A stretch of DNA of 64,000 bases, taken from positions 23,376,721 to 23,440,720 of the forward strand of contig NC_090414.1 in assembly GCF_036365525.1 (NCBI RefSeq), read 5' to 3'. The translations under genes and the position numbers were made by a program. This document shows, piece after piece, positions 1 through 60,466 of this stretch. The notes beneath the pieces are model-generated. The model ran no database searches. It had not been told where the DNA came from and was given only the letters and a program-made list of their open reading frames with translations. Each line of letters starts with the position of its first letter. Positions within the stretch are counted from its first letter, which is position 1. This stretch comes from Heterodontus francisci (taxonomy: Eukaryota).

Positions 1-1729
1 TGGGATCCCCAACCAACTGAAGAATCTATTGAATATAAAAGTAATTTACCTTTATGAAAATTATTTAGATGAGTTCCCTATAAATCTTCCTAAATCTCTG
101 AAAGAGTTGCATCTTCAGGACAATAACATTAGGGCCATTACACATGATGCACTTTCAAGGATTCCCTTGTTGGAAAAGTTACATTTGGATGATAACTCAG
201 TGTCAACAGTCAGCATTGAGGAAGATGCTTTTGCTGACAGTAAGCATCTCAAATTGCTCTTTTTATCCAGGAATCATTTAAGCAGCATTCCCACTGGCCT
301 TCCTAAAACGCTGGAGGAACTGAGGCTGGATGACAACCGGATTGCAACCATTCCGCACTATGCTTTCAAAGGCTTGGTCAGTTTAAGGCGCTTGGTACTG
401 GATGGCAATCTTTTAGCTAATCAAAGAATAGCAGATGAGACTTTCAGCAGACTTCAAAACCTGACTGAACTTTCTTTGATCCGAAACTCTCTCATTTTTC
501 CACCACCTAATCTACCTGCTTCAAACTTACAAAAGCTGTATCTTCAGGATAACCTCATTAGCTACATTCCAGCCAATGCTTTTTCTAAAATGAGACAGAT
601 ACAGCGGCTGGACATATCCAACAACAATTTAACAACTTTGCCCAAAGGAGTCTTTGATGACCTGGCAAACTTGAGTCAGCTACTCTTGCGCAACAACCCT
701 TGGTATTGTGGCTGCAAAATGATGTGGCTCAGAGACTGGTTACAAACAACTGCATTTCACATCAATGTGCGAGGGCTTATGTGCCAAGGGCCTGATAAAG
801 TTCGAGGAATGGCAGTCAAAGACATCAATACAGAAATGGATGAGTGCTTTGAGATCAACTTGCATGGCAGCAACACAGCTGTGAAAACAACCCCAATTGT
901 TCATACAGCTACTGCCACTCAAGGAATGCAATTCACATATAAACCAAGACGACCAAACCTGAAGCCACCAGATTCAGCTGTGGACTATCCTTTGTCAGGA
1001 AGATCAGGAGCAAAGCCGATAATCATTAACGTGATGCCTTTAACTGCTGACAGCATTCGTATAACATGGAGGGCAACGCTACCAGTCACATCCTTCAGGC
1101 TCAGTTGGCTCAGACTAGATCATAATCCATCAGTAGGTTCCATCACCGAAACCTTGGTACAAGGAGACAAGACTGAATATCTTCTCACAGCCCTTGAACC
1201 CAAGTCAACCTACATCATATGCATGGTTACAATGGAGGCCAGCAACTTCTATGTAAGGGATGAAACACCAGTCTGTGCTAAAGCAGAGACTGCAGACATA
1301 TATAGTCCTACCACAACGTTAAACAGGGAGCAAGAGGAATCGGACCAAGTAGGCCTTCCATTAGCTGGTATTATTGGAGGCGCAACAGCCTTAGTTTTCA
1401 TTGTTGTTGTCCTTGCTGCATTATGCTGTTACATCAATAATAGGAATGTTTTTTCACATGATCAGGTGTACAACAGAGGTTGCAGGAAAAAGGATGATTA
1501 CGCAGAAGCAGGGACAAAGAAAGATAATTCCATTTTAGAAATCAGAGGGAGTGGCTTTCAGATGATTCCACTCAACAACCAACAGCGACCAAAGGAGGAA
1601 TATGTGATTCACACCATATTTCCATCCAATGGGACAAGTCTTTACAAGAACACTCATAATACAGCCCTCAGTAGTAACCGAGGTTACAGAGACGGTGGGA
1701 TACCAGATGCTGAATATTCTTACACGTGA
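1..1729 (+). CDS. FLRT1: Fibronectin leucine-rich transmembrane protein 1; single coding exon, 5' end lies upstream of the window
   Basis: Frame is open from base 2 ([20 protein letters not shown]...). It encodes LRRs (LQDNNI, LDDNSV, LSRNHL), LRRCT (NPWYCGC...CQGP), FN3 (SIRITW...[12 protein letters not shown]), a TM helix ([20 protein letters not shown]) and the FLRT tail KKDNSILEI...[19 protein letters not shown]1-type residues ([13 protein letters not shown]-like, ANQRIAD) and the antisense position inside MACROD1 intron 3 fit known synteny. Confidence 0.95.
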
Positions 1730-33697: not shown

Positions 33698-33814
33698 CTG
33701 CATTGACTATTGCATCAATTTCCAGCTTGGTGATGTCCTCCTGCAACAGTGAAAGCTTTTGATTCATGATATCGTCCTTCTTGTAGTGGGATAACGGCTG
33801 TTTAAACATTTGTT
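33698..33814 (-). CDS. MACROD1: MACROD1 coding exon 3 (117 bp), start of the macro domain
   Basis: Acceptor ttttgtttatgcag| and donor GCAG|gttggt, phase 1-1. Reads EQMFKQPLSHYKKDDIMNQKLSLLQEDITKLEIDAIVNA, the macro-domain DITKLExDAIVNAAN motif. Too short for the ORF track. Confidence 0.93.
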
Positions 33815-37959: not shown

Positions 37960-40900
37960 AGAGTTGGTGTTAAGGCCCTTGCTCTTCCTGATATATATTA
38001 ATGACCTGGACCCTGGTGCACAGGGCACTATTTCAAAATTTGTGGATGACACGAAACTTAGAACATTGTAAACTTTGAGAAGGATCGTGTAGAACTTCAC
38101 AAGGACATAGACAGGTTGATGGAATGGGTAGACAAGTGGAAGATGAAAATGAATACAGAAAAGTGTCAAGTGATTCATTTTGATAAAAAGAACACAGAGA
38201 CACAATATAATATAAAGGGTACAATTCTAAAGGGTGTGCAGGTGCTGAGCATTAATCTATTAATTGTATATCAATGGTTTGATTATATGCAGGTGGAGGG
38301 TGTTAATTGGGGTCTTACTTGAGCACTTATAAGCAGACACTTACTGAGACTGGTGGTTTTGAGTGAGGAGCTACATGTTTGTAATCCTTTTACTCTGCAC
38401 AATAAATGTGAAATTGAGTAAAGATAGGCTCCAGCATTATCATTCCATAACAAGCTTTCTGGAGTTTAACATGGTAGCAGAAATGGTTGCTGAAAGCTGG
38501 AAACTAGGAATTTTTTTTTAAACATAGAAAACTAAAACCTCAGGGCTATTGTGGAAAATATGGCATGAAGCAAGTGTAAATTATCAGGGTATGATTACCC
38601 TCTGATGTTCTGAGTCTAAAGCATATGACCAGTGGAAGAATGAAGTGGATGTGTGGACAGGGGTTACATCTCTCCCAAAGAGGAAACAAGGTATGGCCTT
38701 GGTGTTGTCACTTCCTACCAAAAGTAAAATCAGAAGTAAAGTGTTTTGTGAACTGGAAGCTCATCAGTTGGATCTTCTGTTAGAATTCTTGGATGAAATT
38801 TACAAGAAAGATAATCTATTGAATGTGTATGAGGCATGGTCAGACTATAATAAGATTTTGGAAAACAGTTATTCAATGGAGGAATATATCATGGACTTTA
38901 ACAGACTGTATAGAAGATTGAGGAAATTCAATTTGGAGATCCTTGGTTCAGTGCTAGCATTTAAATTGCTAAATTGAGCTAGGGTGTCACATATGGACAG
39001 ACTCCTGGTTCTAACTAGGGTTTGGTTCATGGACAAAGACTCCTGTTGGATCAAATGTCTGCTGCCTTAGAAAAATTCCTGGGGAAACTGTCATTTCCTG
39101 CAGCCCTGGTAGAATAAACAGGGCATTCTGTGGTGATGCAAAGAATGGAGGACTCAATGTTTACTAGATTTTGAAATGGTACAATGGAAGAGTTAAAGAC
39201 AGGGGGAATGAGGATGAAAGCACCTTTAGCAGGTCTCTTACAGTGGAAGACAGAATTGGAACAACAATCATAGGTGAATGAACCCCAGCAATGCCCAAGG
39301 AACAGTTAATAGGTGCTTATGATGTGACTCCAAGTATCATTTTGCAATGAACTGCCCTAAGTGGAGGGGCAGAATCCTTGAAATAACACATGATACAGAG
39401 AATTCTGAGGCAGAAGAGCAAGATACTGATGATTTGGAACAAATTATACTAGTCACAAGGTTTTAGTCCTGTAATGAATGTGTTAGTTGCAGATTTGTTC
39501 AACTGTGTGGTATTGGATAACGCTTGCATGTCAACAGTATGTGTACTTGGTAGTAAGGATCGATGCAAGGTTAAGGAGTGTAAAAGTACTACCAGCTTTA
39601 AGTTTGGTGATGACAACGCACTGAAGTTACAAAAGAACATAGTAATTCCTTGTAAAATAGCTGCAGTAAGCCACTTATCAGTACTGATGTAGTATCTAGT
39701 GAGATACCTTTACTGTTGAGTAAGCCTTCAATGAAAAAAGCAAAAATAGAACTTGATATGGATCATAAGGCAATTGTTTTTGGAAAGTCAGTGAATTTGC
39801 AGTTTACCCAGTCAGGACATTATTGTATACCCTTAACAAAGCCTGATATTTCTAGTCTGAGTGACATGAGAATGGCATCAGATGTTAAGAGTCAGATAAA
39901 AAGCAAATTGTCTTAAAGTTCCATACAATTTGCTCACCCTTCAGGTTGGGACAAAGACAAGAATATTTTCATTCTACATTGTATAGATCTAGCAACTAGA
40001 TTTAGTCTTTTTACAATAATAAACAGCAAGGGCAAAAGGGTGATTATAGATGAAATCATGGAGAAATGACTAGGAACTGGACTTGGGGCACCAGCTAAGT
40101 TTCTGACTGATAATGGAAGGGAATTTGCCAATGATGAGTTCAGAAACATGTGTGAAAATATGAACATTATAGTTATGAATACTGCAGCTGAAAGTCCTTT
40201 CAGCAATGGGCTCTGTGAAAAGAATAATGCAGTGTTTGATGAAATGCTGCATAAAATCTTAACTGACCAGCCAAACTGCAAGTTGACAACTGCCCTGGCA
40301 TGGGTGGTTCATGTAAAGAATTTGTTTCAGATGGTTGGAGGATATAGTCCCTATCAATTGGTCCATGGGCGAAATCCCAAATTGCCTTCTGTACAATGTG
40401 ACACTCCTCCTGCTCTAGAAGGTACGACAATTGGTTTCATTTTTTTCTGCATTTGAGTGCTTTACATGTGGGGAGGCGGGCTTTCATCAAGGCTGATGTC
40501 TGAGAAAATTCAGAGAGCTCTGAGGCATTGCATAAGGCCATCTGAGGCAGAATTTAATTCAGGAGATTTGGTGTATAATAAAAGAGAGGGTCATAGGGAA
40601 TGGAAGGGCCCTGGTAAGGTAATCGGTTGATGTTAAGATAGTAGTTATCAAGCATGGAAATCAAACTGTTAAGGTTCATTCCTCATGATTGTTAAGGGTT
40701 GATTATCAACTGCTCAGATTCTGAGATTTTGTAGAGGCAAACTATGCACCTTGTACCTCAAACACTAGTGTTTTGTGATGAAGGTCCTGAGGAACAGAAT
40801 GCGGTAGATTAAGGTTTGTATAGTAATGAGGGATCTTGACGCTCCAAGAGCTATCGCATCCAAAGGACAATTGCCCAATTTGGTACTTGAGTGACATATT

Positions 40901-43145
40901 CCAGAGGGGTCTAATTGATGGAGGCATGCAACAATTGTGGCAAGTGTATGAATATCTACAGGCACGTTTAAATATTGGTTTAAATGTTCAAGAAGATGGC
41001 AGAGAAGCAAGGTCCATGGACTGGCAGAATAGGATGAAAGAGTGGAGGGTAAGAAAGTGCAGTGCAAGTTCTAATTATAGGTCTGGAAGTGACTCTTGCA
41101 TAAGGAAGCAATCACGTACTGGAGAAAGAACCTCCAATAACATGCAAGGGAGATCTTCTAGCAGTAGTCCCGAAAGACAGCAAAGTGCAAACAGAGGTCG
41201 TAGTTTCAGCAGATTCCACAATGAAATGAAGGCTAGAGAACAATCTGAGAACAAGAAGCAAAAGTCCTCATGACTGTTAGGTTTTAGTGGCCGTCAATAA
41301 ACTTGAGGATAAACTAATGAGAAGCAAAACATAAGGAATTAGAGAGTTGGTGAGAGTTTGGAGTTTATTCTCAGGTACAGGGGCAGCTGACCTTGTCACA
41401 TAGATGGACTTGTACTGAAAAAGTCCTTCCTGATGGAACTTATAAGGCTAAAGTGAGGCTAGTCGCGAGAGGTTTTGAAGAACGACTGGGTGATATCGTT
41501 ATTACAGTGGACTCTCCTACGGCTGGAAAAGTAATTTTGAAAATCTTTTTAGCTCTTTTGGCCACATATTCATGGGAGTGTAAATTCTTTGACATAAAAG
41601 CTGCATTTCTGCAGGGTGATACTTTTCAGAGGGAAATGTTTCTGAAACCACCCAAAGAGGCAGTAGATGCAGAAGGAAAACTATGGAAACAGAACAAATG
41701 CATCTATGGCTTTAATGATGCTTCCAGGGTGTGGTATTTCTCGATGAGATCTGTTTTGTTGAAAATTGGTTGTGTTCACCTAAACGGAGTAACCATAATA
41801 TTTCTGATGGGTGAAAATGGGAAATGTTGTCCTTTAGCTTGGGAGGCTAAGAAAATAAAATGGGTCATTAAAAGCACTTTAGCTGCAGAAACACTGGGTC
41901 TTGTGGAGGCAATGGATATGGGGTTCTATTTGTCAAATATTCTGGGTGAAATTCTGAACAAAGGACATACTGAAGATAGGATATCCATTGAATGTTATGT
42001 GGATAATTGTTCTTTGTGGGATAATGTACACTCTACAAAAAAGATGAGTGAGAAATGACTACGTATTGACCTTGCTGGATTGAAATGAATGCTGGAGAGA
42101 AAGGAAATCTCCAAACTTAAATGGGTAGGTGCAAGTCATCAGCTATTCAATTGTTTCTCAAAGAAATTGTTAGGGGTGCTCGAGGAGGGGCATCTCACAA
42201 TGTAATAGTTGGTACCCAATATGGAATTTATTTTGAAATGTTCTTTGAGCATGTTAATCCATGTTGTATTATAAAAGAAGGAATCTGTTAATTGTGTATC
42301 AATGGTTTGATTATATGCAGGTGGAGGGTGTTAATTTGGGATCTTACTTAAGCATTTACAAGCAGACACTTACTGAGACTGGTGAAGGGTTTGAGTGAGG
42401 AGTTACATGTTTGTAATCTTTTTACTCTGTACAATAAATGTGAAACAGAGTAAAGATAGGCTCCAACATTATCCCTCCCTCACAAGCTTTCTGGAGTTTA
42501 ACACAGGGACCTGGGTATATAGGTGCATAAATCATTAAATGTGGCAGGACAGGTTGAGAATGCCATTAATAGAGCATAAAGCATCCTAGGCTTCATTAAT
42601 AGGGGAATAGAGTACAAAAGCAAGGAATTTTTATGTTAAACTTGTGTAAGACACTGGTTTAGGAAAGATGTGAAGGCATTAGAGCGAGTGCAGAAAAGAT
42701 TCACGAGAATGGTTCCAGGGATGAAGAACTTCAGCTACCTGGAGAAGTTGGGACTGTTTTCCTTGGAGAAGAGATTTGATAAAGGTGTTCAAAATCATGA
42801 AGTGTGTGGACAAAGTAGATAGGGAAAAACTGTTCCCATTGGTGGAAGGATCAAAAACAAGAGGGCACAGATTTAAGGTAATTGGCAAAAGAAGCAATAG
42901 CGACATGAGGAAAAACCTTTTTCATGCAGTGAGTGGTTAGGATCTGGAAAGCACTGCCTGAGTGTGGTGGAGGCAGGTTCAATCAAGGCATTCAAGAGAG
43001 AATTGGATTGTTATCTGAAAAGGAAGAATGTGCAAGGCTATGGGGAAAAGGCAAGGAAATGGCACTAAGTAAATTGCTCTTTTGGAGAGCCAGCACAGAT
43101 ATGACAGGCCAAATGGCCTCTTTCTGTGCTATAACAATTCTGTGA
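37960..43145 (+). mobile_element. CR1 LINE 3' portion split by the copia element (37960-38243 and 42504-43145)
   Basis: KFVDDTKL...EWVDKWKMKMN...GTILKGVQ on the left continues as RDLG...GFINRGIEYKS on the right; CR1 tail at ~43110. Confidence 0.85.
38258..42503 (+). mobile_element. Decayed Ty1/copia LTR retrotransposon, probably GalEa clade, inserted in a CR1 LINE
   Basis: Paired ~215-bp LTRs (38258-38471, 42286-42503; TGTT/TATT...AACA). PBS TGGTAGCAGA at 38472; purine tract at 42273-42283. Gag (QWKNEVDVWT), Zn knuckle (CxxCDSKYHFAMNC), protease (VLDNACMSTV), integrase (TDNGREFANDEF, AAESPFSNG) precede RT (KVRLVARGFEE, DIKAAFLQG, IYGFNDASRVWY) and RNase H (STLAAE, VDN), which is copia order. 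Many stops and an internal RT deletion. Confidence 0.88.
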
Positions 43146-44084
43146 AGGAAGTTTTTACAAAAGCTAAGTGAAGAGGTGCACTTTAACTGAATCAGACATT
43201 CTGTGTTGGTGCACCTAGATCTTGAAGTGTGAATGCTGGAATTCTAAAATTAAAATATGCTTGAAATAAGCAGCTACACCATCGGCCCCTACGACTCCAG
43301 TAATTGTATCTAATGCAAGCAACAAAGGAACCTTGACCTTACCTAGGAACACCTCGTAAGGCAAATCCTCCTGTTGACTTCTGATCTATTTGAACACAGA
43401 TGGTTAAACTGAAATATAGTCTCTGAATGTTCTCTGCAGTCTGTCCCTTTAAACCTACTGCAACCAGCCAGGTAGTGGTAGGACTGTCTTTAAGTATTTA
43501 AACATTAAATGTCATCAATGCATTAGATAAACCCAGGTATTAAAGTACACAAAGAAAGTACAACAAGAGGGCATAAAAAGAAATGAGTTGAGACTAAATT
43601 CAGAACAGATAATCAGAAGATTGTCTTTATTCATTATAAAATACAGGAACATAAGTCCTCAGAAGCAAACTATTACCTAATTAGTATATGCACAGCAGCT
43701 TTGTCCAGCTACCAACATAAAAGAATTGATCAATGCCTTGCATGGGGCAGAAGAGATGATAAAAACACTTTGGAAAAAGTCATCGGGAATTAGCAAGAGC
43801 TCATCTGAATTGCTCCTCTTTCAGGGAACAGGACAGAATGAAAACATGACTGATTCAGTTTTACTCACCTTGCTATTCCCTTGTTGCACAATTAGAAAAA
43901 TGAGAGCAAAGCTCCTTCATGCCAGACATCAATAGAGACAGTGGGCAGGGAAGAAAAGTGACCCAGCACAGTGGATTGCCAATACATTGCACTAGAGTGG
44001 CAAGACACCAGTTTCCAACACAATCCTCCATAGACTTTCTATTCTCAACCATGCCGCACTCATGGGCACAAATGCAGGAAGGGA

Positions 44085-44860
44085 ATTTTTTTTTCTCAAA
44101 TATACTTTATTCATGAAATTTGTAAAAGTATGTTACATAACCATCCAAATTTGATGGTACATAAAGTGCAATAAAGATCAGTTTCTATCAACTCATTACA
44201 TGTGCCTCATTACACTTGCCATTATAGGTTATATTTACATTTGACATTTCATGTCAAATATTCTCTGGTCGATACAGCCTGAGAGGCTTTACACAGGTTC
44301 CAGCCCATCAGTACACAATGGCGGGAGGACTTTAGAATTTCCCCTTGAACCTTTGTGGTGGCTGCCTCAAGCTTTAGTGCATCCCTCCATACATAGTTTT
44401 GGAACTTGGAATGTGCCAGTCTGCAACACTTGATCGTGGACAGCTTTGCACTGGAAAACCAGAAAATTTCAGACAGACCAAAGAGCATCTTTCACCGAGC
44501 TGATGGTCCTCCAGCAGCAGTTGATGTTTATCTCTGTGACCCTGAGAACAGCATGCAAATCACTTAGTCTTGCATTTTGGAGCTGCTGGGATGAACCTCG
44601 GCAAAAACCACTGAATCGCTTTCCATACCTGCTTTGTAAAGGCACATTCCAGAAGGAGGTTGGCGACAGTCTCTTTTCCTAGCACAGCTGCCTCAAGAGC
44701 ATCACAGCTTGGTGCTAAGACTCTGGGCGTGCAGGAAGTATCTGACAGGGAGGGCCCTTCTCACCACCAGCCAAGCTACATCTTGGTGTTTGTTTGAAAG
44801 TTCTGGCAGGGACTAAATTATCGCAGGTGACAGACAACCTTGGACATTTCCTCTGAACTA
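44085..44860 (-). mobile_element. Tx1/L1-clade LINE 3' fragment
   Basis: PELSNKHQDVAWLVVRRALPV, ETVANLLLECAFTKQVW, CCRLAHSKFQNYVWRDALKL; AATAAA plus a short poly(A) at 44086-44112. Confidence 0.8.
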
Positions 44861-46671
44861 TTTTTAAACCAGCATTGGCAGAATGGCTTCTCCTCTCTGC
44901 ATCCTTATGTGTTGAAACCAAAACTCAGAAGTCTGTTCTATTTCTTTCCCAGAATCTTAAGATTATGCAACTCTTTACTTCCTTCTACACTCAAAGATAA
45001 AATCCAAAATGCCATGCACTCTTTTCTCTTTACAGATGCTGACTAACCGCTGCATATTTCCAGCATTTGCAGTTTTTCCCTCTTTGTTTTACTGATTTTC
45101 ATAGTCGTTTAATCTTTTTAAATTTGATTAGGCCCTATATGATGGGCCTTGGGCCTTTGTTCAGGTTACTCGTTGCAAAATGACAGAACTGTTGACTTGG
45201 GAACACTAATATGGCAAAACAAGTAAACACTCCGAGCTCACACCACCAGTCTTCAGCTATTCAATTGTAAATGTGGGCAAACAGCTACCTGGAAGTGCGC
45301 TGGGTGAAATGGCAACTGATATTTTTGCCTTATTTTGCAATCGGAAGTTTTCCATATTACAACAGCGCCTACACTTCAAAAGGACTTAATTGGCTATAAA
45401 TGCTTTGGAATATCCTGAGGTTGTGGAAGATGCTATAGAAATGCAACACTAACAAGGTGAGAGTTAGAGTATGTGTTCTCTCTCTGTGGTTCTGGGATAG
45501 ACACAGTGTCAGATTCTAGTATAACCTGTGCATCAGCTGAGCTCAACAATCAAGTCAAGGTATAGTGGGGCCTGGTGTTGGATCAATGGACTTGGGTGGA
45601 GGCCATCAAGTCTAGGAACTTCCCAACAGGGGTCAATGCTTAGTAGCCATAGACAAGGCCACTGGGGAGACCAGAACCAGGGGCTATCAATATAAGATAG
45701 TCATTAAGGAATTCAGGAGAAATTTCCTTACCCAGAGAGTGGGGAGAATGTGGAGCTCATACCACAGAGAATGGTTGAGGGGAATAGTATAGACACAGTT
45801 CAAGAGCATTTAAATAAGTACATAAGGGAGAAAGTAATAGAGCAGTATGGTGATAGGATGAGATGAAGAAAGGCAGGAGGCTCGTGTGCAGCATAAACAC
45901 CAGCGTAGACCCGTTGGGACGAATGGCTTGTTTCGGTACTGTAAATTCTGTGTAATACTCTATGTAAAAATATTTCCTTTTTTTAAATTGAACTCTGCTC
46001 CATGCATCCTCCAATGGTATGGCGAAGATCATGAAACTGGCTAAGGGAAATTAAGCACTCAAACCTACACCCATCAGTTCAACACACAACATGCTGATGT
46101 ATTTATCCCCAGACCCATTTTCACAAATTTTTCAAGCAAACTGCCAGTAGCAATATTTTGAACAAAACTGTCAATCAAAATAGACTCCAGTCAGGTATTC
46201 AGCATTCCCATGCTTGCTCATTTCAGTTTATTGCTCGTCAATTCAGCTGAATCTGACACAGGCTGGAGAAGTGAGGACTGACTAGATTTAGAAATCAATT
46301 CCCCAACTTTAAAAACACATTTCAAATTAAATTTAATGGTAAGTATATTAAATTAATCGCAGCTAGATTCATTAGGGAGGCACTCTGCTCGGAAGCTGTT
46401 GGGTATAACTGGGAAGAAATGTCCGTTGATATGTAATGAGACAGTAGCCTGCATGAAATTACAGAGATTGTGTGCAGGATGTGTGCACTGAAAGGATGAA
46501 GATCAGAAACCTTGGGTGATGGAACAGCTCCCAGCTGGGAAAAGAACAAAGCTGAGACAGTGGAATGTGTATTTAAATGTAAGACTGTACAGACAGAATA
46601 CAGGATGGTGCAATCTTCGAACATCAATAGTTGTAACCGCCTCAATTCTCTGCCTAAAACAGCAGTCATAG

Positions 46672-47012
46672 AGAGATACAGAACTGAAACAGGCCCTTCG
46701 GCCCACCGAGTCTGTGCCGACCAACAACCACCCATTTATACTAATCCTACACTAATCCCATATTCCTACAACATCTCCACCTGTCCCTATATTTCCCTAC
46801 CACCTACCTATACTAGGGGAAATTTATAATGGCCAATTAACCTACCAACCTGCAAGTCTTTTTTGGCTGTGGGACGAAACCGGAGTACCCGGAGAAAACC
46901 CACGCAGACACAGGGAGAACTTGCAAACGCCGCACAGGCAGTACCCAGAATTGAACCCGGGTCGCTGGAGCTGTGAGGCTGCGGTGCTAACCACTGTGCC
47001 ACTATGCCGCCC
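46672..47012 (-). mobile_element. HE1/V-SINE, chimeric copy; an orphan 5' head lies at 47421-47460
   Basis: Shares private variants with the 29152 copy, but its 3' variants (GTTGTTGG, CAGTTCTG) match the 35366 subfamily. Confidence 0.85.
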
Positions 47013-47422
47013 TTTGTGTGTATATCTGAGCAGATGTCACAGAATGGCAGTAGGAATCTTGGAAAACCTTTCCCCCTGTCCCTGACGGAGGATCACTGAG
47101 GTGAATTGTGGCACCCTCTCTACTATCCAAGCTGTGATCAGCCAACTCAGCACTGACTAGGAATAAGCTTGTGCTAATTCCATTTAGGATGGTGGTAGGT
47201 ATACAATACTTGTCTGAGTGTCCCTGGGTTAGGAAAGGGAAAATTCAGTCATGGTTCCCACACCTGAATGCTATACAGAGATCTCCTTCCCTAAACTGAG
47301 GCACTGAGATCAGTCGTGTCACTAGCACAGACCAGGGCTGGAACTTGATAAATTGGTACCACATTGCACATTACCACCGAATAATTGAGACCTAGCCTCC
47401 GTTTTCAAAAATCATCTATAGA
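46672..47422 (-). repeat. Right arm of the 751-bp inverted duplication (partner 28742-29492)
   Basis: As for the left arm; followed directly by an orphan V-SINE head at 47421-47460 through a GA microhomology. Confidence 0.93.
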
Positions 47423-48199
47423 GCTGTGAGGCTGCGGTGCTAACCACTGCGCCACTGTGCTGAGTTTGTTGTGCTCCACCAGGGCATCATTAGGGGCATG
47501 ACACCTGTCCTCAGTACCCTGGAAGTGGAGTGAATCAGCCAGAGCTCCCACTTCCAATCTCTATCCAGGAATCTCTGCCAGAAAGTGTACATATATATTG
47601 GGTGAAGGGGGGTTCTGCTTGGCTGTGTTGGCCCAATAGCGGAATAGCCTATTAGGAACTCATTATCAGGTCCACTTGGCCGAGATGCTGGCATGCAGTT
47701 GTCACTCTTGTAACTGTACCTCAACATAAGTCAGAAATATCAGAGTGGAAAACTTGTGAAAAGAAAATTAAAATTAATAGACTATGAAAGAAGAGAGCAA
47801 GAAATGTTGATTCTAGGATTTCACATGGCCCATGATGGAATCAGAAAAGCTCTTTTGGAGGGGAAAAATCAGGCAGAAATCCTACTTCTCTGCTGTGTTG
47901 CTAAGTAACTGGGGCTTGCCAAACAGAACCCTGGATTGGTTTAAAGAAATGTCAATCAAACAACCCTCCTGTTTCCTGTCATGTGAAACTCAGGAGCACA
48001 AAGGGGAAGTGGGGAGAACAGTCTGCTGAAGCAAGTAATCAAACAGAAATCTGATCATTTTGTAGGTTTGTTATTTAATATACAGAGTGAAACTTTTCTT
48101 AAGCAAGCCATCTGTAAAACTGTAATTCTTCAGTTAGATGATCAGCTGGTTTCATTTTTAGTCTGACAGGGGAGTGAACAGACATTGCAAGAAAAATCC

Positions 48200-48775
48200 A
48201 TGGAGGAATTGAACCCTACATCAGTATTTGACAAAGATCCTTTTGAGCTCACAGCTGAAGATGTCTACGATATGTCTTATGTCATTGGCCGTGATTTATT
48301 CAAACTCAGCAGCTCAGAAGGCTGCCACAAAGTCTCCGAGCTGCAGTACAAGGTAATCAGAGTACTAGAAATGATCGAGTCTCTAGTGGACAAGCAGAAT
48401 TTAACAGTAGAAACGCTGAAAATTGAACGGGACAATCTCAAAACTGAAACAGAAAGGCTGCGCAGAGAACTTCAAGAGGCAGTAAGCAATTCAGAGAAGC
48501 AGCAAAGCATTGGGCTGGACAAACTTGTGGTAGATGTCAACGACCCAGATCGCCCACGTTTCACACTCCAGGAACTGAGGGATGTGTTGCAAGAACGCAA
48601 TAAATTGAAGGCTCAGTTGCTTGTTGCACAAGAAGAACTTGAGTGTTACAAAAGCGGATTAATCTCAACCGACGAATCTCAAAGCCTAGAAATGAAGGAG
48701 TCACATGCAAATCGTGGAAGTGAACGAACTATGATTAAAAAACTGTTTTCTCTTAAACATAGAAAAAATCCTTAA
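48200..48775 (+). CDS. RILPL2: RILP-like protein 2 homolog, intronless ORF of 191 aa nested antisense in MACROD1 intron 2
   Basis: ATG at 48200 (tccATGG). RH1 region PFELTAEDVYDMSYVIGRDL...KVIRVLEMIESLV; RH2 region DPDRPRFTLQELRDVLQERNKLKAQLLVAQEELECYKSGL; RILPL2-type tail TMIKKLFS. No stops or frameshifts. Candidate splice acceptors at 48160-48169 and AATAAA at ~48974. Confidence 0.88.
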   Translation: MEELNPTSVFDKDPFELTAEDVYDMSYVIGRDLFKLSSSEGCHKVSELQYKVIRVLEMIESLVDKQNLTVETLKIERDNLKTETERLRRELQEAVSNSEKQQSIGLDKLVVDVNDPDRPRFTLQELRDVLQERNKLKAQLLVAQEELECYKSGLISTDESQSLEMKESHANRGSERTMIKKLFSLKHRKNP

Positions 48776-50069
48776 GCTCCAGGGACATGCAGATCTTCCA
48801 AAGGTTTTCCGGGCATTAACTCATTGTTTTGTTAAACAGAATTACGGTACTCTAGAACAACTGTATAATGTTATGACACAAGAATTTTCAACGTTTACTT
48901 TTCTACACAAACCAAAAAATTGGTTTGCTACATGTAAAATACAAGTTACGTTTGTTTTTCTAACTGAAAGAGGAATAAAAGGACTGCAAAAAGAAATTAA
49001 AATAGATTTAATTTCTAAGCACTTTAGGTCGGGTCCAATCAAATTCACAGCCATGAAAAATGTGTCACGGACCATGAAATCTGGGGTCCTCTGTGAAATC
49101 AGCCATTTTGCAAACTTCACACGTTTTATTCATTGACACATGGCTCACTTCGCTGATTGGTAGAAGAGGGCCTCTGGTGCAGTTTTGAGAGAAGCAGTCT
49201 CAAGTATTAGCAAGCAAGTGAGAATGCCAGAATGAGCAATTCAAAAATGGCCACATCCATTACTGCAGCACGTCAAGTGGAAGAATTTGGAAGCCAAATT
49301 CTGCATAACGATGGTGGAATACTGGTTTGTACGAGCTGCAATGTTTCACTGGTTCAAACACGGGCAACGTTTCAGTGCCACTTAAGTCCGAAAGCCAGTG
49401 CAGCAGAAAGCGAGCATCCCACACCACACTGTTGGAAAATAAACGCACAAAAAAGACAAGCAACAATTTCATCTCTGTATTGCTGAAAATAGAGACATTT
49501 TGTCAAAGTTTTTCATCTCTTTTTACAAATTCAATAGAAAGCTCAGAAAATTGTCAGTTGGTTACAACGGAATTTATGATGCTTTTGCAAGCACCACCAT
49601 ACCACTAGAAAAATTGGATCACCCAAAGATGCAGACATTCATTCAATGTAATGTGCAATATGGTGTTTGCTTGCCAAGTGTGAATAAACCGCGACAGGAC
49701 TACCTACCAAAGGTCTTTGCTACCCATTGTGAGGAGATGAAATCTGAGATTAACACATGAGAGTCTTGTGCAATTATTTATTATGAGCAAGCACCGATAG
49801 GCAAGACAACTATATGCTGCATATTTTGTTTGTATGTCTGGTAAGGCAGAAGATGTACGTCAGGAAAGCTAACAGTACCCACGGACTGCATCCACTTAGA
49901 AGCTGTTAATTACACCACAGTTTCGCAAGTGATAATCAAAACCGTTTCAAAATACGGTGCAGATTTCAACAAAATGTCTGCGTTCATTCGTGACAATTCA
50001 ATTTACATGACAATCTTTCAAGCTGTACTCCAAGGCGTAATGCCTAATGCTATCTATATTACATGTAAT

Positions 50070-50575
50070 ATATTACATGTAACATGTAGTAATAATGTAC
50101 AGCATATACACCCTACTAAGCCAGCGGCGCCTGAGATGGCTTGGCCATGTGAGCCGCATGGAAGATGGCAGGATCCCCAAGGACACATTGTACAGCGAGC
50201 TCGTCATTGGTACCAGACCTACCGGCCGTCCATGTCTCCGCTTTAAAGACATCTGCAAACGCGACATCAGGTCCCGTGACATTGATCACAAGTCGTGGGA
50301 GTCAGTTGCCAGCGATCGCCAGAGCTGGCGGGCAACCATAAAGGCGGGGCTAAAGCATAGCGAGTCGAAGAGACTTAGCAGTTGGCAGGAAAAAAGACAG
50401 AAGCGCAAGGAGAGAGCCAACTGTGTAACAGCCCCGACAACCAATTTTATCTAGAGTCTGTCACTCTAGAATTGGCCTTTATAGCCACTCCAGGCGCTGC
50501 TGCACAAACCACTGACCACCTCCAGGCACTTACCCATTGTCTCTCGAGACAAGGAGGCCAAAGAAGAAGAAGATG
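50070..50575 (+). mobile_element. 5'-truncated RTE-clade LINE inserted in the hAT transposase
   Basis: ORF C-terminus RRLRWLGHVSRMEDGRIPKDTLYSEL...RPTGRPCLRFKDICKRD...WESVASDRQSWR; (GAA)n tail at ~50562-50573; 12-bp TSD ATTACATGTAAT at 50058-50069 and 50576-50587. Confidence 0.88.
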
Positions 50576-51496
50576 ATTACATGTAATGCACATATAACTT
50601 CTCGTCAGTGAGCTGTGGAAAAGCAAGTTTGGTAAAGTCGACAAACTGGTCAGCTACATTAAAAAGATCTTCAAACACTGCCCGAGCTTCAATACAGGCA
50701 GCACATTGCAATTGAGGCTGAAACTAGAGAACAAAACATCGTCCTTCCTCCAGAGCCAGCAATTACACGTTGAAATTATTGATTTTCAGGTAGTACAGTA
50801 TCATGCAGCTCACCTGAAATACTACTCAGACTTGCTCTCACAAGAGCTCAAACTGACACCAAAAACATAGATTTTAACAGACATTGTAACCCTTCTAAAC
50901 AATGCTTAGCTTAATGAGGAGGTTCAGTTTGTTGCCAAGAATGCTACACGACTGATGGATTTAATCACTTGGTTACATACAGCGTCACAATCCACAAAGC
51001 TTACAATAAAGTAATGGATGTACTGTTCTGGGCTGAAGCACAGACAAACGAACACTCCAATGACGCTGAATTAAAGAACTGTGCTCAATAGGTGTTTTCT
51101 TGCATGGCAAAGAAACTCAAACAATATTACTGCTACAGGGAAAAGTCAAGCAGTGAAGAAAATGCAGCTCAGAGGTTTCAACAACCTTCTGCAGCATTCC
51201 TGAAAACTGTGCATATCTTTGACCCTGCACAAATGTACCTGTTGATGGTGGATTTAAACTCTTTTGATGTGAATCCTGGCTTTGAAAAGAACTGTAGGTT
51301 GGAGATTCCTGCTTATAAAAGCATTGCAAAAGAAGATTATTCTTTGATTGTGCTGCAGTTTTGGAACTCTGTGGAATGTAGAATCCCCCAGCTTGCAATG
51401 CTAGCACGGCGCTGTCTGACAATTCCAACAAACTCTGTGGACATGGAGAGAGCTGTACCTAAACAAAGACAGGCGTTCACAGCACAGGGACTGGGG

Positions 51497-51687
51497 ATTT
51501 ACCTATCACTTGCCAAAGACTTGCAGGTGATAGGTAAATTGGCCTTTGTAAATTACCCCTAGTGTAGGTAGGTGGTAGGGAATATGGGATTACTGTAGGG
51601 TTAGTATAAATGGGTGGTTCTTGGTTGGCACAGACTTGGTGGGCCAAAGGGCCTGTTTCAGTGCTGTATCTCTAAATAAATAAATAG
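51497..51687 (+). mobile_element. 5'-truncated V-SINE with a fold-back junction, inside the hAT element
   Basis: CAAAGACTTGCAGGTGATAGGTAAATTGGCC...GGGCCTGTTTC...(TAAA)n, preceded by an inverted 17-nt copy ATTTACCTATCACTTGC. Confidence 0.8.
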
Positions 51688-52634
51688 ACAGTTGAAAGTT
51701 GCTTCATACTCACATTCAACTGCAGACTTCAGTGAGTAAAGAATGTGACCTGTTCAGAGTCAGCTTTTTACAATAATTTTTGAGCATACAATAAATGCCA
51801 TTTGAAACCAAAAATCTCCCTTCTCTTTTTATTTGTTTTAAATACTTCATTTTCATGGTTTGTTGCGACACCACGAAATTTATGATTTAAATGTATGAAA
51901 TTCACGATTCTTAAAATGCTGTGACCATGAAATTTGTTGAATTTGGTAGGCCCCTAATTATAGGGGTAAGGTGCCAGACAGTCATAAAAATCCATCTGGT
52001 TCACTAATGGTCTTTGGGAAAGGAAATCTGCCATCCTTATCCGGTCTGGCCTATATGTGACTCCAGACCCACAGCAATGTGGTTGACTCTTAATTGCCCT
52101 CTGAAATGACAGAGCAAACCACTCTTGTATTCAAGGCAGCAGCTCACCACCAACTTCTCAAGGGCAATTAGGGATAGGTAATTAATGCCAACCTTGCCAG
52201 TAAGGCCACATCCTGTGAATGAATTTCAAAAAAGCTGGTAAACCATTGCAATTCCTGAAAATATTTCTAAATATTACATAGAATTACGATGAAATTGTAA
52301 CACAGAAATGGATCATTCGACCCAACCAGTCTGTTTAGGCATTTATCCTTCACACGAGCTTGTATAAAAAGTAATTCCATCATACAGCTGAGCTTATAAG
52401 GCATGACTTAAAATTAACAGATCTCCCAGAATGAGATGATCGGACTTAGCAATGGGGCAACAACTGTGGTGACATGATTTTATTACAAGTCCCAGTTTGA
52501 GACAGGTTCTTCCCACTGCAATGATGAGGAGCAAGCAAATCTCAGAACATAAAGTCTGATAATTTAAACCATCTAACACGTTTTTAAACTACTTTAATGG
52601 TAATTAGTTATACTATAGCTATTGTGAAGCAAAA

Positions 52635-53118
52635 AAAACCTTGCATTTATGTAGCGCCTTGTATTCATGACCACCAGATGTCCCAAAGCGCTTTACAGCC
52701 AACAACATACTTTTTGTAGTGTCGTCACTGTTCTAATATAGGAAACGCTATAGCCAATTTGTGCACAGCAAGCTCCCAAACAGCAATGTGATAATGACCA
52801 GACAATCAGCCTGAGTGATGCTGATTCACGGGTAAATATTGTCCAGGACTCCTGGGATAGCTCGCCTGCTCTTCAAAATAGCAGCCATGGGATCTTTTAC
52901 ATCCACCTGAAAGGGAATATGAGGCCTCGGTTTAACGTCTGATCTGAAAGGCTGCACCTGACAGTATAGAACTCCCTCAGTACTGCCCCTCTGACAGGGC
53001 AGCACTCCCCCAGTACTGCACTGAAATGTCAGCCTTGATTTTTGTGCTCAAGTCCTGGAGTGGTACTTGAACCTTGTGACTCGAAGGCAAGTCTGCTACC
53101 AACTGAGCCATGGCTGGC
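52635..53118 (-). mobile_element. DeuSINE (SacSINE1-like); other fragments at ~28375-28530, 34045-34200, 34760-34915, 45330-45445, 62935-63065
   Basis: TGGCTCAGTTGGTAGC head, Deu domain, AAAGCGCTTTGGGAC tail. Confidence 0.8.
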
Positions 53119-54133
53119 ACAGTAAATATGTCGACCAAAGCAACGTGCAACCATTTCCTGGAAATAGGCTCAAATCACTTACCTAAATCTGTTTCGGGTG
53201 ACTTCACAGAATCGTTATAGCACAGAAGGCTATTCGGCCCATCATGTCCGCACTGACTCTCCGAAAGAGCAATTCACTTAGTGCCACTCCCCCGCCTTTC
53301 CCCCGTAAACCTGCACATTCTTCCTTCTCATATAACAGTCTGATTCCCTTTTGAATGCTTCAATTGAACCTGTCTCCATGTCACATCACAATGAAAAACT
53401 GAAACTGCTTGAAATAAATGCAAGCCGTGCACTATAATTAGCTCACAGTACTGAATGCATGGCAGGGGCTGGTACTTGATTTCCAATGCCATGCATTGGT
53501 CTTTTCACTGCATTCCCACATGCTGAAAAATACAATCTTTACAAAGTGCCTGTAGCTACTGAATGGATAATATAAACTAGACAATGTTTTGTATACTTAT
53601 CGGCCAGGTTGTGTTTTATAAACAATATATGAACCACTGAGTTTTGTCAGTTACTGGTTCTGCAGCTTTCAAGCTCTTTCAAGTAGATATAATGTCAGTG
53701 TCAAATATTTATACTGCCTTTGATAGATATTATTAAATACATGTATTATTTAATAGTCTCTCGTGTGTCTATAACATGTATTTGAAGGAATTGGGATTAA
53801 TTTCCTGCTCAGCTGTCAGAACTGAATAAGTCCATGTTTTTCAATGGTTTAATCATATTATACACATTTCTTCCTGTTACCAAACACATACATTTTGTAA
53901 TACTTAGGTGAACTCTGAATTTTCATTGATTTTAATTGCAATTCTATTCTGTCCACCCTGATAACTTTCTTGCATCCCCCTGTGAGGATGCAGAACATCA
54001 CTGGGAAAAGATTCCAGTACCTTAATGAAATGGTGAACCAAGAGAATAAAAATCATCCATCTATTTGGACAGCACCACAGCCAAGTCCAATCCTCTGCTC
54101 ACCAAACTTCCGCACACACACGCTTGCAGCAAG

Positions 54134-54505
54134 GGTTAATTGTATATCAACCAGTTCTGATGATGATGAAAGACCACAGATCTGAAACGTTAACTCTGTT
54201 TCTCTCTCCATAGATTATGCCAGACCTGCTATTTCCAGCACTTTCTGTTTTTATTTCAGATTTCCAGCATCTGCAGTATTTTGCTTTTATATTAATTGTA
54301 TATCAATTGTGTTTAATTATATGTAGGTGGAGGGCATTCATTGCAGATTCACTTGAGCACATGTGAAGAGACAGTCACTGAAACTGGAGTGTAGTTGAGT
54401 TCGGAGGTGTGTGCTTGTAATGTTTCACTCTGTAAATAAATGTTAGGCTGAGTAAAAATTTGGCTGCAGTACTATCCTTCACAAATGGCTTTCTGGAACG
54501 TAACA
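54134..54505 (+). mobile_element. Solo LTR related to the copia LTRs at 38258/42286, interrupted near its 5' end by a Penelope-like insert
   Basis: Shares TTAATTGTATATCAAT...TTATATGyAGGTGGAGGG...AATAAATG...GCTTTCTGGA...TAACA with the copia LTRs; more diverged from them than they are from each other. Confidence 0.8.
54151..54291 (+). mobile_element. Short Penelope-like insertion headed by a hammerhead motif
   Basis: CAGTT-CTGATGA(TGATGA)-AAGACCACAGATCT-GAAACGTT-AACT; 15-bp TSD TTAATTGTATATCAA (54136-54150, 54292-54306). Confidence 0.75.
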
Positions 54506-54894
54506 GTAACTAGATAATAATCAAGACCAGGAACCTTAGCTGATTGTTTGCTCCACACCTGCCACCCCCACCCCTTCTTTTCATGTACTTGCTTATAGAC
54601 TGTTCAATCTCTAACTTCTTCCAGGCCTGATGAAAGGTCAAGGACCTGAAATGTTAACTCCGTTACTCTCATCACCTGACCAGCTGAATACTTTCAGCAT
54701 TTGCTGTTATTTTATTGTTTCCTGATTCGGGACACTGAAAGGAACTGGTAAACCACCCCCAGCCTCCTCCCACTCTTCTCCTGACTGAAAGGAAACATAT
54801 GGAACACGTTTAACCATTTAGAGTACTAAATTCTTGAGGTACCTTCTCCTTCAAGTTTATTTTGTTCTTTTAAATACAAAAATATATTACTGAC

Positions 54895-54996
54895 CTTGAG
54901 CAAAGTCTTTCCATGTCTGAATCTCATCAAGGATAACAAACCTTTCAGCTTTGTAGTAAATACGTCTCTCTGTGCGATCAATTTCCTCGAGATGCT
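54895..54996 (-). CDS. MACROD1: MACROD1 coding exon 2 (102 bp)
   Basis: Acceptor tttttctaataaag|AG and donor CAAG|gtcagt, phase 1-1. Reads KHLEEIDRTERRIYYKAERFVILDEIQTWKDFAQ, like human LSDKQREEHYFCKDFVRLKKIPTWKE. Splices in frame to exons 1 and 3. Confidence 0.9.
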
Positions 54997-55629
54997 CTTT
55001 ATTAGAAAAAAAGACAAAGAAAGAGGTTCTGTACTGTTGGCCCTGATTTTCCTCCAGGATTTTCCATTTCATGCCACATGTCCCACTCCTGACCATAAAC
55101 AGGCAATCAACCTATTCCAAGGCTTTAGCAATCTTTTGACAGTTCCTTCTATCTGCAGAAGCATGATGGCTCCAGTCAGACAGTCAAGATCACAAATTCA
55201 CAGGGGGCAACATATCCAACTGCTCCTGAGCACAATATACCAGTGAACAGTTCGTATGAGGACATAAGTTACTGCAAGTTGCAAACTGCAATCATCTACT
55301 TGTAAAAAAAATTTAAATATACCTGAGCTACATCTCTCATTTGACATACCCTAAACTCCAACAAACAGAAGTTGTGTCATGTATTTTATCCACTCTCTTT
55401 CCCTTCTTGCTAGGGGTACAGGTCCACAGGTGGCAGCTGCTCTGCAGTGGCTCAAACAGCCATTAATCTTTTTCTATTCATTCTTAGGACGTAGGCATCG
55501 CTGTAAAGTCTGGCATTTATTGCCCAACCCTAAACTGAGTGGTTTGCTGGGCCATTTCAGAGGGAAGTTGAGAGTTAACCAGATTGTTCTGAGTCTGGAG
55601 TCACATAGGCCAGACCAGGTAAGAACAGA

Positions 55630-55718
55630 AATATAAACAAGAAATGCTGGAAATACTCAGCAGGTGTGGCAGCATCTGTGGAGAGAAGCAGAGTTAACGT
55701 TTCGGGTCAGTGACCCTT
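55630..55718 (-). mobile_element. Short Penelope-like insertion in a SINE; other family copies at ~15105-15250, 22045-22135, 54560-54720, 59595-59805
   Basis: AGGGTCACTGACCCGAAACGTTAACTC...; 14-bp TSD CAGGTAAGAACAGA (55616-55629, 55719-55732). Confidence 0.75.
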
Positions 55719-57039
55719 CAGGTAAGAACAGATTTCCTTCCCGAAAGAACATTAGTGAACCAGATAGATTTTTATAATAATCCAATATTTTCATGGTCAC
55801 CGTTACTAATACTAGCATTTTATTCCAGAGTTATTTAGTTTAACATCTGTTGCTGCCACGGTGGGATTTGAACTCATGTCTCCAGATCATAAGTCTTGTA
55901 ACACAGCCACTATGCTACCATGCTCCTAAGTGCTAAGGGAGTGCGGACATACATATTTTTAATTCTTTCATGTGATGTGGGCATTGCTGGCAAAGCCAGC
56001 ATTTGTTGCCCATCCCTAATTGCCCTTGACAACTGAATGGTTTGCTGTGATTCTGGAGTCACATGTGGGCCAGACCGGGTAAGGACGGCAGATTTCCTTC
56101 CCTAAAGGACATTAGTGAACCAGATGCGTTTTTACAATGATCCATGATAGTAATAGTGCCATGAAGTTGAGACTGGCTTTCAATTCCATATTTATATTAA
56201 TTGAATTTTAATTCCACCAGCTGCCAGGGTGGGATCTGAACCCATGCCCCCAGGGCATTAGCCTGGACCTCTGGATTACTAGTTCAGTGACAATACCACT
56301 ACGTCACCATCTCCCCTATAGAACATAGAACAGTACAGCACAGTACAGGCCCTTCAGCCCACGATGTTGTGCCGAACCTTTAACCTACTCTAAGATCAAA
56401 CTAACTACCTACCCTTCATTCTACTATCATCCATGTACCTTTCCAAGAGTCGCTTAAATGCCCCTAATGTATCTGCTTCTACTTCCACCGTTGGCAGCGC
56501 ATTCCACGCACCCACCACTCTCTGTGTAAAGAACCTACCTCTGACATCTCCCCGAAACCTTCCTCCAATCACCTTAAAATTACTTGTACTCTAATTTGGA
56601 TTCAAATCCCTTCATTAAAGGAGCAATCTCTTCATGAAAAAGTTCTTTGCTTGAGGAGGTAAGATCGCCTGAAAAGCGATACATTTTGTCATGGTGCCAT
56701 AAGCGATTGGCTGATGCATTTCAATAAGATTTATGTCATTGCATTGTGCATTTCAAAACAATGGGGAAAAGACTAGATAATGACGTAATCATGAATATGA
56801 TGCACCATTAACATTTCAAGATTATGAAATATTTGTAATTCCAGTGTCTATGTATATAGTTTAGCTTAATCCTGCCCTCACCCCATTCAGCAAAAGTTGC
56901 CGGACATCAATCAGTGCTAGATGCCCTGGCCAATTTTTCTTCCCCAACCCAGAGCAACCTAGTGTCTTGCAGCACCACTAACCATTGCTCTGGCTGACGT
57001 TACAGCTAACTCAGTGTGAATGGGGACCAAACAAATGAC

Positions 57040-60135: not shown

Positions 60136-60466
60136 TTTTCGCCACTTTCCAGTCGGTGGTAGGGTAAGTGGGGTTAAACTCCTTGGAAGACATGCTGGCG
60201 GCCGACGTGGAAAAGGCTGCAGCCGCCGCGCTCGACGGCAGCAAGTGAGGGCGGCGGGGGCCCCGGCCGCCGGACAGTACCCAGCGCGCAGGCGTCGACC
60301 CGCCGGCCGCCGGACAGCACCCAGCGCGCAGGCGCCGGACCGCCGGCCGCCGCGACCGTTGGACCTGGTTCGAATCGGGCGTCGCGTGACAGCTGGCGCG
60401 CGCCCACTCCAACGGTCGCCCGGTCCAGCGCAGGCTCCGGCTGACCATGGCGACGAATTTCTCCAT
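60136..60466 (-). CDS. MACROD1: MACROD1 (ADP-ribose glycohydrolase) coding exon 1, with an Arg/Ala/Ser-rich mitochondrial-presequence-like N-terminus
   Basis: ATG at 60466 (alternative strong-Kozak GCCATGG at 60448). Translation ends ...FSTSAASMSSKEFNPTYPTTDWKVAK, like human STDWKEAK. Donor AAA|GTAAGT after 60136, phase 1. Lies in a CpG island. Confidence 0.85.
60263..60352. repeat. 40-bp tandem repeat (~2.2 copies) within MACROD1 exon 1
   Basis: CCGGCCGCCGGACAGyACCCAGCGCGCAGGCG recurs at 60263 and 60303; CCGGCCGCCG recurs again at 60343. Confidence 0.9.

Follow-up and report, generated by a model that had tools for sequence, protein, structure and literature searches.

How did an intact, intronless RILPL2 gene come to lie within an intron of MACROD1 in Heterodontus francisci, and what became of the gene from which it was copied? 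The locus was analysed in a stretch of 64,000 nucleotides of contig NC_090414.1 (the window; positions are counted from its first letter). A preliminary description, made from the letters alone, had noticed a clean 191-residue reading frame of RILPL2 type with RH1 and RH2 regions (Table 1). Our analyses confirmed this assignment. The frame of 191 codons is unbroken, with neither stop codons nor frameshifts, and Pfam recognized RH1 in residues 21-81 (E = 2.6e-13) and RILP/RH2 in residues 122-182 (E = 4.2e-21), both above the curated cut-offs. All three PDB matches were RILPL2 chains. The protein is short, with an N-terminal RH1 and a C-terminal RH2, and the rooted trees described below separated RILPL2 from the outgroups (100/99-100). 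The reading frame is RILPL2. It is single-copy DNA within its own genome (G000), and its protein is already present in NCBI and UniRef; the gene itself is thus annotated, and the question concerns its origin and fate.

A six-frame search of G000 returned seven matches among 49 scored candidates, which comprised the window frame, an exon-split RILPL2 gene and a RILPL1-like gene on contig C23, and a RILP-like gene on C30. The four coding exons of the exon-split RILPL2 (C23:2737735-2738043, 2751914-2752065, 2753321-2753413, and from 2755047 onwards) joined to a protein of 193 residues that is identical to P0222, labelled Heterodontus at NCBI. RILPL1-type exons lie upstream of this gene and a KMT5A exon lies 5.5 kb downstream; the human gene order is RILPL1-RILPL2-KMT5A. 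The intron-containing parent that the preliminary description proposed to seek near RILPL1 was therefore found. Aligned to it, the window frame runs without gaps over all three intron junctions, with 120 of 190 aligned residues and 67% of the bases identical (dN = 0.27; dS = 2.3, near saturation). All three parental coding introns are absent and the site lies in an intron of a gene with no relation to RILPL2, as is characteristic of retroposition; the window RILPL2 is a retroposed copy, as had been proposed. Inspection of the 3′ flank by eye revealed neither a poly(A) remnant nor a target-site duplication, and at a dS of 2.3 neither is expected to survive. The untranslated regions (UTRs) of the two copies showed no significant similarity. 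UTR homology on the strength of one 37-nt match was rejected, because its E-value rose from 0.008 to 0.12 in a larger search space and shuffle tests were marginal.

Some further features of the parental locus are recorded here. Two acceptors are annotated for the last exon, at C23:2755047 (P0222) and 2755434 (P0016), and the RNA contigs support the former. The RH1 coiled coil of the parent protein has Pro in place of a conserved Leu, and after RH2 a conserved Lys is replaced by Gly. In human, SNRNP35 lies between RILPL1 and RILPL2; no SNRNP35-like frame of at least 130 residues stood out in C23:2715001-2737000, where no search was aimed at SNRNP35.

The host gene was identified from three exons on the minus strand, which are bounded by AG/GT, join in phase 1-1, and yield an open frame when spliced. 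Exon 3 matched human MACROD1 best (2X47, E = 9e-8, vs. E = 0.03-0.05 for MACROD2), and more Macro-domain exons follow downstream on the same strand of contig C44. This exon layout places the plus-strand RILPL2 frame antisense inside MACROD1 intron 2, where the preliminary description had put it.

Twelve runs from four studies matched the stretch, none of them recorded as RNA. Four were compared over positions 47200-49400: X1 and X3 (one sample, organism A), X6 (organism B), and X8 (organism C). The contigs of these runs drop rare forms. Contigs of X1 (47989-49206) and X3 (48011-49202) matched the window with zero mismatches, and in both runs adjoining zero-mismatch contigs extended past 49400. 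X6 contributed a contig at 47984-49205 and X8 one at 48128-48391, and the unique flank 47496-47939 had zero cover in all four runs. In X3 and X6 the parent was present with its exon 2-3 junction spliced, and X6 also contained the GT-AG joint of exons 3 and 4. The spliced parent contigs, together with the bare flank, indicate that the runs hold mRNA, and since retrogene contigs occur in the same two runs, both paralogues are expressed in the genus. No parent exon contig was found in X1 and X9; the runs were chosen by the retrogene and depth cannot rank the genes, so this was not used as evidence.

A new 5′ non-coding exon is common in old retrogenes, and not required. The preliminary description had proposed such an exon, spliced to an acceptor 30-40 nt before the ATG. 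An acceptor-like sequence is present, with YAG ends at 48161 and 48169 that lie 38 and 30 nt 5′ of the ATG, but the tract is no more than 65% pyrimidine and there are 12 YAG sites in 47901-48199. Its usage found no support, since no splicing into 48162 or 48170 occurred among the joints listed and the contigs of all four runs cross both sites without interruption. Three of these unspliced contigs start at 47984-48011, which argues that the main form is a single exon from about 47,985, and the acquired upstream exon was not borne out in these samples. The predicted AATAAA about 200 nt after the stop exists at 198 nt, and it is read through in three of the four runs; the fourth contig ends before it. 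Further AATAAA motifs occur at 49438 and 49683, inside a decayed hAT transposon. In other lineages, the records of two stingray isoforms diverge just before the ATG, with no more than three residues in common ahead of the start methionine, and identical proteins of Pristis, Mobula, and Callorhinchus stand under several transcript accessions. These annotation records suggest that alternative 5′ exons may exist there. A TBLASTN search with the stingray N-terminal extensions in the window and 120 kb of its neighbours yielded nothing convincing.

Several details of the transcript ends deserve mention. The sole upstream ATG of the apparent 5′ UTR opens an out-of-frame upstream open reading frame (uORF) of seven codons (48138-48161, plus strand), the stop of which is the TAG of the proposed acceptor. 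In organisms B and C a T>C change at 48159 turns this into CAG; the YAG is kept, the uORF stop is gone, and the uORF would overlap the main start. At the contig 5′ ends (47968-47988, plus strand) lie TTCCTGT and TCATGTGA, which we take to be ETS-like and E-box-like, respectively, and which are possible promoter elements. The 3′ UTR of the retrogene enters the decayed hAT transposon and may use the AATAAA at 49438 or 49683.

Sequence comparison of organisms A and B listed eight coding differences, six synonymous and two non-synonymous (omega of about 0.09, binomial P = 0.002). This ratio between relatives, which the preliminary description had named as a check, is far below 1 and indicates that the retrogene is under purifying selection. 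Close homologues with 66-85% identity occurred, among the matches listed, in sharks, rays, and Callorhinchus. The copy is therefore not lineage-specific in the narrow sense that had been suggested, as its orthologues span sharks, rays, and a chimaera. In an ingroup tree of a subset of 29 rows (13 retro-type, 3 parent-type, and 13 bony-vertebrate proteins), the retro-type rows, including Callorhinchus, grouped together (99/97), as did the parent-type rows (100/99), and both alternative placements of Callorhinchus were rejected (p-AU = 0.014). With Callorhinchus inside the retro-type group, the copy would be older than the chimaera-elasmobranch split. That split is about 410-420 million years old.

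Two rooted trees were computed, one of 47 rows with a RILPL1/RILP outgroup and one of 31 rows with RILPL1 and cyclostome proteins. Both joined the shark parent with bony-vertebrate RILPL2 (99/97 and 98/96), in which case the duplication would precede the bony/cartilaginous split. An origin within cartilaginous fishes was rejected in neither tree (p-AU = 0.113 and 0.133), nor was retro-type monophyly in the rooted analysis (p-AU = 0.126). As the outgroup branches are long and the root falls on the Callorhinchus branch in both trees, the position of the root was treated as unsettled.

The distribution of the two copies was assessed in protein searches covering the best 120 of 591 matches for the window protein and the best 120 of 706 for the parent (proteins of about 105-338 residues). 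Retro-type proteins were present in 23 named cartilaginous-fish species, with the window included and cluster members counted. Among the best 120 for the parent query, three parent-type clusters ranked above the retro-type ones, and parent-type proteins came only from Heterodontus, Pristiophorus, and Heptranchias (79-100%). An exon-1-only search (17 matches among 26 candidates) added a parent-type protein of the sawfish (Pristis), P0377. This protein is degenerate, being shortened to 166 residues with Cys at X-cap position R130, and falls within the parent clade (100/98, 31-row tree) on a long branch; it is 62% identical to the G000 parent, vs. 76% for the retro copies of the same two species. 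A parent-type record thus exists in at least 4 of the 23 species, and none was found for the other 19 among the matches listed. Of 153 further proteins, mostly 50%-cluster representatives, none was nearest to a parent-type sequence. The C-terminal IKKLF-type motif was present in 22 of 23 retro-type proteins, in none of four parent-type ones, and, with a looser pattern, in 141 of 180 from bony vertebrates.

On the 47-row gene tree, the 19 species lacking a parent record probably imply about four separate losses, which would have occurred in the chimaera, in skates and the electric ray, in stingrays and mantas, and in galeomorphs except Heterodontus. Loss of the parent in most cartilaginous fishes is likely on this distribution. 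Replacement by the retrocopy is likely for the other galeomorphs, because an intact parent should have topped the parent-query list, and less sure elsewhere. The preliminary description had left it between an extra paralogue and a replacement of the parent: the copy is an extra paralogue in this genome and a probable replacement in most other cartilaginous fishes.

The binding-site residues suggest what the protein may do. R130, R132, F133, T134, and K149 are reported as the RH2 determinants for LRRK2-phosphorylated Rab8a (PMC7139218). Their equivalents were kept in all 23 retro-type proteins. In the skate proteins P0207, P0209, and P0008, the RH2 helix reads HERI for QERN (His for Gln, Ile for Asn) beside the Rab-binding surface. 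In RH1, binding to myosin Va is reported, with credit to Wei et al. (2013), to depend on F56 and V59 (mouse numbering) and to be abolished by F56P and V59Q, whereas RILP and RILPL1 have Pro at position 56 and bind the dynein light intermediate chain instead (PMC9284427). With mouse numbering transferred via 4KP3_C, assuming a 6-residue tag offset, positions 56 and 59 were Tyr/Ile in 23 of 23 retro-type proteins and Phe/Leu in four of four shark parents; of 180 sequences from bony vertebrates, all have Phe at the first position and 178 have Val at the second. Retro-type proteins therefore depart from the Phe56/Val59 pair expected of RILPL2, by conservative changes and not to Pro or Gln. Because F56Y and V59I are conservative, the retro protein would most likely link phospho-Rabs to myosin V, as mammalian RILPL2 does, its affinity perhaps retuned. 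The pocket difference, fixed on both sides, may be the strongest clue to how the two copies could be maintained. The suggestion that the copy might be functional gained support from RNA contigs of three organisms and from purifying selection; the function of the protein itself is a prediction.

Taken together, it is probable that an intact, transcribed, intron-free copy of RILPL2 was retroposed into MACROD1 intron 2 before the chimaera-elasmobranch split and became the chief RILPL2, or the only one, in most cartilaginous fishes. A spliced RILPL2 mRNA would have been reverse-transcribed and inserted there, and a promoter would have been gained just upstream within the host intron. The product is predicted to be a dimeric adaptor, of which the RH2 X-cap would bind kinase-phosphorylated Rab8/Rab10 and RH1 would couple the cargo to a class V myosin, while F56Y and V59I possibly shift myosin affinity or isoform preference. 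Once the retrogene covered the essential function the parent would have become dispensable; it may then have lost its C-terminal IKKLF motif, decayed in the sawfish, and been lost probably some four times.

Several of our results weigh against this scenario. The sawfish parent lay outside the best 120 of both the 591 and the 706 matches, so more decayed or unannotated parents may be hidden. In the sharks with both copies the parent core is as conserved as the retro core (83% vs. 82%, and 79% vs. 77%), and departures at conserved columns number 10, 12, and 7 for the parents vs. 9, 8, and 8 for the retro copies in three such sharks. Conserved and expressed in the genus, the parent is not a dying gene here. 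That the intronless copy occupies the MACROD1 site in other species is suggested indirectly, by N-terminal read-through peptides resembling the window 5′ flank (whale shark: 1 of 536 control windows scored as high; skate, weakly: 26 of 536). The RNA contigs carry neither strand nor tissue, the strand of the retrogene following from its frame, and 3 of 18 differences in the X6 contig are unlisted; counting all three as non-synonymous would raise omega to 0.23 (P = 0.018). The hidden sawfish parent also suits the possibility that this ancient functional retrogene is an extra paralogue only, the parent persisting in most cartilaginous fishes as an unannotated, truncated, or too diverged gene with which the work is divided. 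In this genus the two genes are each intact and transcribed, Heptranchias, Pristiophorus, and Pristis have likewise retained the pair, and the myosin pocket differs consistently between them (Y/I vs. F/L). Intact parents of the other galeomorphs, the closest relatives, would however be expected at about 80% identity and at the head of the list, and among the best 120 of 706 there was none for nine such species with an annotated retro-type protein; nor was any of the 153 further proteins nearest to the parent type. We regard this possibility as a genuine if minor one.

The joining of shark parent and bony RILPL2 in the rooted trees would fit two older scenarios. The retrocopy could have been born in the jawed-vertebrate ancestor and sorted reciprocally, with bony vertebrates keeping the intron-bearing gene and losing the retrocopy, and with chimaeras, skates and electric rays, stingrays, and most galeomorphs each dropping the parent independently; the pocket split of Tyr/Ile vs. 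Phe/Leu would then direct phospho-Rab cargo to different motors. We hold this version to be rather doubtful; were it true, the replacement would still be under way more than 400 million years on. Alternatively, the copy could have arisen by duplication at the DNA level, as an ohnologue from whole-genome duplication or as a transposed segment, and have shed the three introns afterwards through recombination with cDNA. The vertebrate genome duplications date to the period before the bony/cartilaginous divergence, where the trees put the split, and a poly(A) tail or target-site duplication was not seen. The 5′ flank, moreover, bears a faint likeness to that of the parent in global alignment (11-27 of 1000 controls at 60-100 nt), which was not significant locally or at 200 nt. 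Against such a duplicate stand the loss of all three introns and the position within another, unrelated gene; RILPL1-, RILP-, and KMT5A-like neighbours are absent around the window copy. The PITP and coronin markers of the C23/C30 paralogon had no listed match on C44, a weak point as some matches lie on small unplaced contigs, and the root rests on long branches, with the chondrichthyan-only origin not rejected in the tests given above. A DNA-level origin is accordingly improbable. A young processed pseudogene in which decay has yet to begin would explain the lack of introns and nothing else. It was refuted by a dS of 2.3 relative to the parent, by orthologues that are intact in 22 further species, by an omega of about 0.09-0.23, and by RNA contigs from three organisms, and we give it next to no credence.

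Table 1. Positions of the RILPL2 retrocopy, its transcript signals, and neighbouring features in the window
Feature	Position	Strand	Basis or remark
Intronless RILPL2 coding sequence, 191 residues	48200..48775	+	Open reading frame list, Pfam
RH1 domain, residues 21-81; myosin-Va-binding module in mammals	48260..48442	+	Pfam, 4KP3_C match
Y50 and I53 (mouse F56 and V59), myosin Va contact positions	48347..48358	+	4KP3_C alignment
RH2 X-cap and helix: R118, R120, F121, T122, K137 (human R130, R132, F133, T134, K149); intact	48551..48610	+	Alignment
Lost parental intron 1 site (13,870 nt, phase 0)	48502..48503	+	Alignment to parent
Lost parental intron 2 site (1,255 nt, phase 2)	48654..48655	+	Alignment to parent, spliced parent contigs
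Lost parental intron 3 site (1,633 nt, phase 2), within IKKL|F motif	48744..48745	+	Alignment to parent, spliced parent contigs
RNA-contig cover, unspliced; 5′ ends 47984-48011, continuing past 49400	47984..49400	+	Strand inferred from reading frame
Acceptor-like pyrimidine tract, YAG 48159-48161 and 48167-48169	48140..48169	+	Unused in RNA contigs; overlaps 7-codon uORF 48138-48161
AATAAA, 198 nt past stop	48974..48979	+	Read through in 3 runs
Decayed hAT-type DNA transposon (Dimer_Tnp_hAT E = 7e-6, ~51340-51480) and LINE fragment (~50100-50570); boundaries approximate	49020..51600	+	Domain search
Host MACROD1 exon 1 (coding part), CpG-rich stretch	60136..60466	-	Splice frame
Host MACROD1 exon 2	54895..54996	-	Splice frame
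Host MACROD1 exon 3	33698..33814	-	Splice frame, human MACROD1 match
FLRT-type membrane-protein frame; other antisense nested gene, in MACROD1 intron 3	2..1729	+	Leucine-rich repeats and fibronectin-III domains

The surroundings of the retrocopy agreed with the preliminary description in two respects. MACROD1 hosts two antisense genes here, the RILPL2 copy in intron 2 and an FLRT-type frame in intron 3; the latter we take to be FLRT1 from its position only, and another FLRT is possible. Frames derived from transposable elements reach at most about 250 residues in the window, from which we conclude that they are broken, as had been claimed for all those in the neighbourhood. Pieces of a broken LTR-retrotransposon-like element, with integrase- and reverse-transcriptase-like peptides judged by eye, lie at 38606-42058 (plus strand). 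No Rfam families were found in 44000-56000. The CpG-rich MACROD1 exon 1 comprises 110 codons, including an Arg/Ala/Pro-rich segment that is repeated internally, and another in-frame ATG lies near 60192. GC content probably accounts for the long frames that overlap there on the two strands.

We found no account of this case in the open-access literature on RILPL2 combined with shark, cartilaginous-fish, retrogene, or duplication evolution (subscription journals lie outside this scope), and RILPL2 is not mentioned in the VGP Phase I text and three supplements, outside of which full retrocopy tables may lie. Retrogenes, nested antisense genes, and orphan retrogenes are all established, and the probable replacement belongs to a known kind, of which no RILPL2 case was found described in that literature. 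The result is moderately surprising, the event class being well known and the protein already in public annotation. If the replacement is true, the RILPL2 of the cartilaginous fishes in common study (catshark, skate, bamboo shark, and elephant shark) is not the positional orthologue of human RILPL2 but the retrocopy, driven by a separate promoter and altered at two fixed positions of the myosin Va pocket, which would bear on comparative work on cilia and the LRRK2-Rab pathway. It would also offer rare natural stages of a retrogene takeover in slowly evolving genomes: both copies intact, parent truncated, parent decayed, and parent not found. The natural variants F56Y/V59I and V59L are material for the question of how RH1 domains choose a motor.

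Mammalian RILPL2 (PDB 4KP3, 6RIR, 7LWB) resembles the window protein in combining RH1 and RH2 within about 190-210 residues and in its conserved X-cap R130/R132/F133/T134 and K149, with tetrapod proteins about 52-56% identical to it. Unlike the mammalian gene, the window copy is free of coding introns and lies antisense in MACROD1, not beside RILPL1 and KMT5A, and its myosin Va pocket carries Tyr and Ile in place of F56 and V59. FLRT1 is nested in MACROD1 and FLRT3 in MACROD2, a nesting that is shared by the paralogues and so predates the MACROD2 paralogue. The retrocopy is likewise an antisense gene nested in a MACROD intron, as is the FLRT-type frame of intron 3, but no RILPL2 copy was found at a second MACROD-like locus on C13.

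Orphan retrogenes, whose parent is lost in the same genome, provide the closest comparison. In this genome the retrocopy is not an orphan, since its parent is intact and expressed in G000. PMC4772013 describes orphan retrogenes and new 5′ exons and reports CpG-island promoters for 9 of 10 orphans; in contrast, the apparent start of the RILPL2 retrocopy has no CpG island (2 CpG in 700 nt). According to PMC3548309, most parents of orphan retrogenes were lost before the next major split, whereas the two RILPL2 copies would have coexisted since at least the chimaera-elasmobranch split. For CHMP1B of placental mammals the same paper reports a retrocopy that is conserved by purifying selection, with the parent retained in some lineages and lost independently in others (PMC3548309), and the RILPL2 retrocopy presents the same patchwork of parental survival and probable loss.

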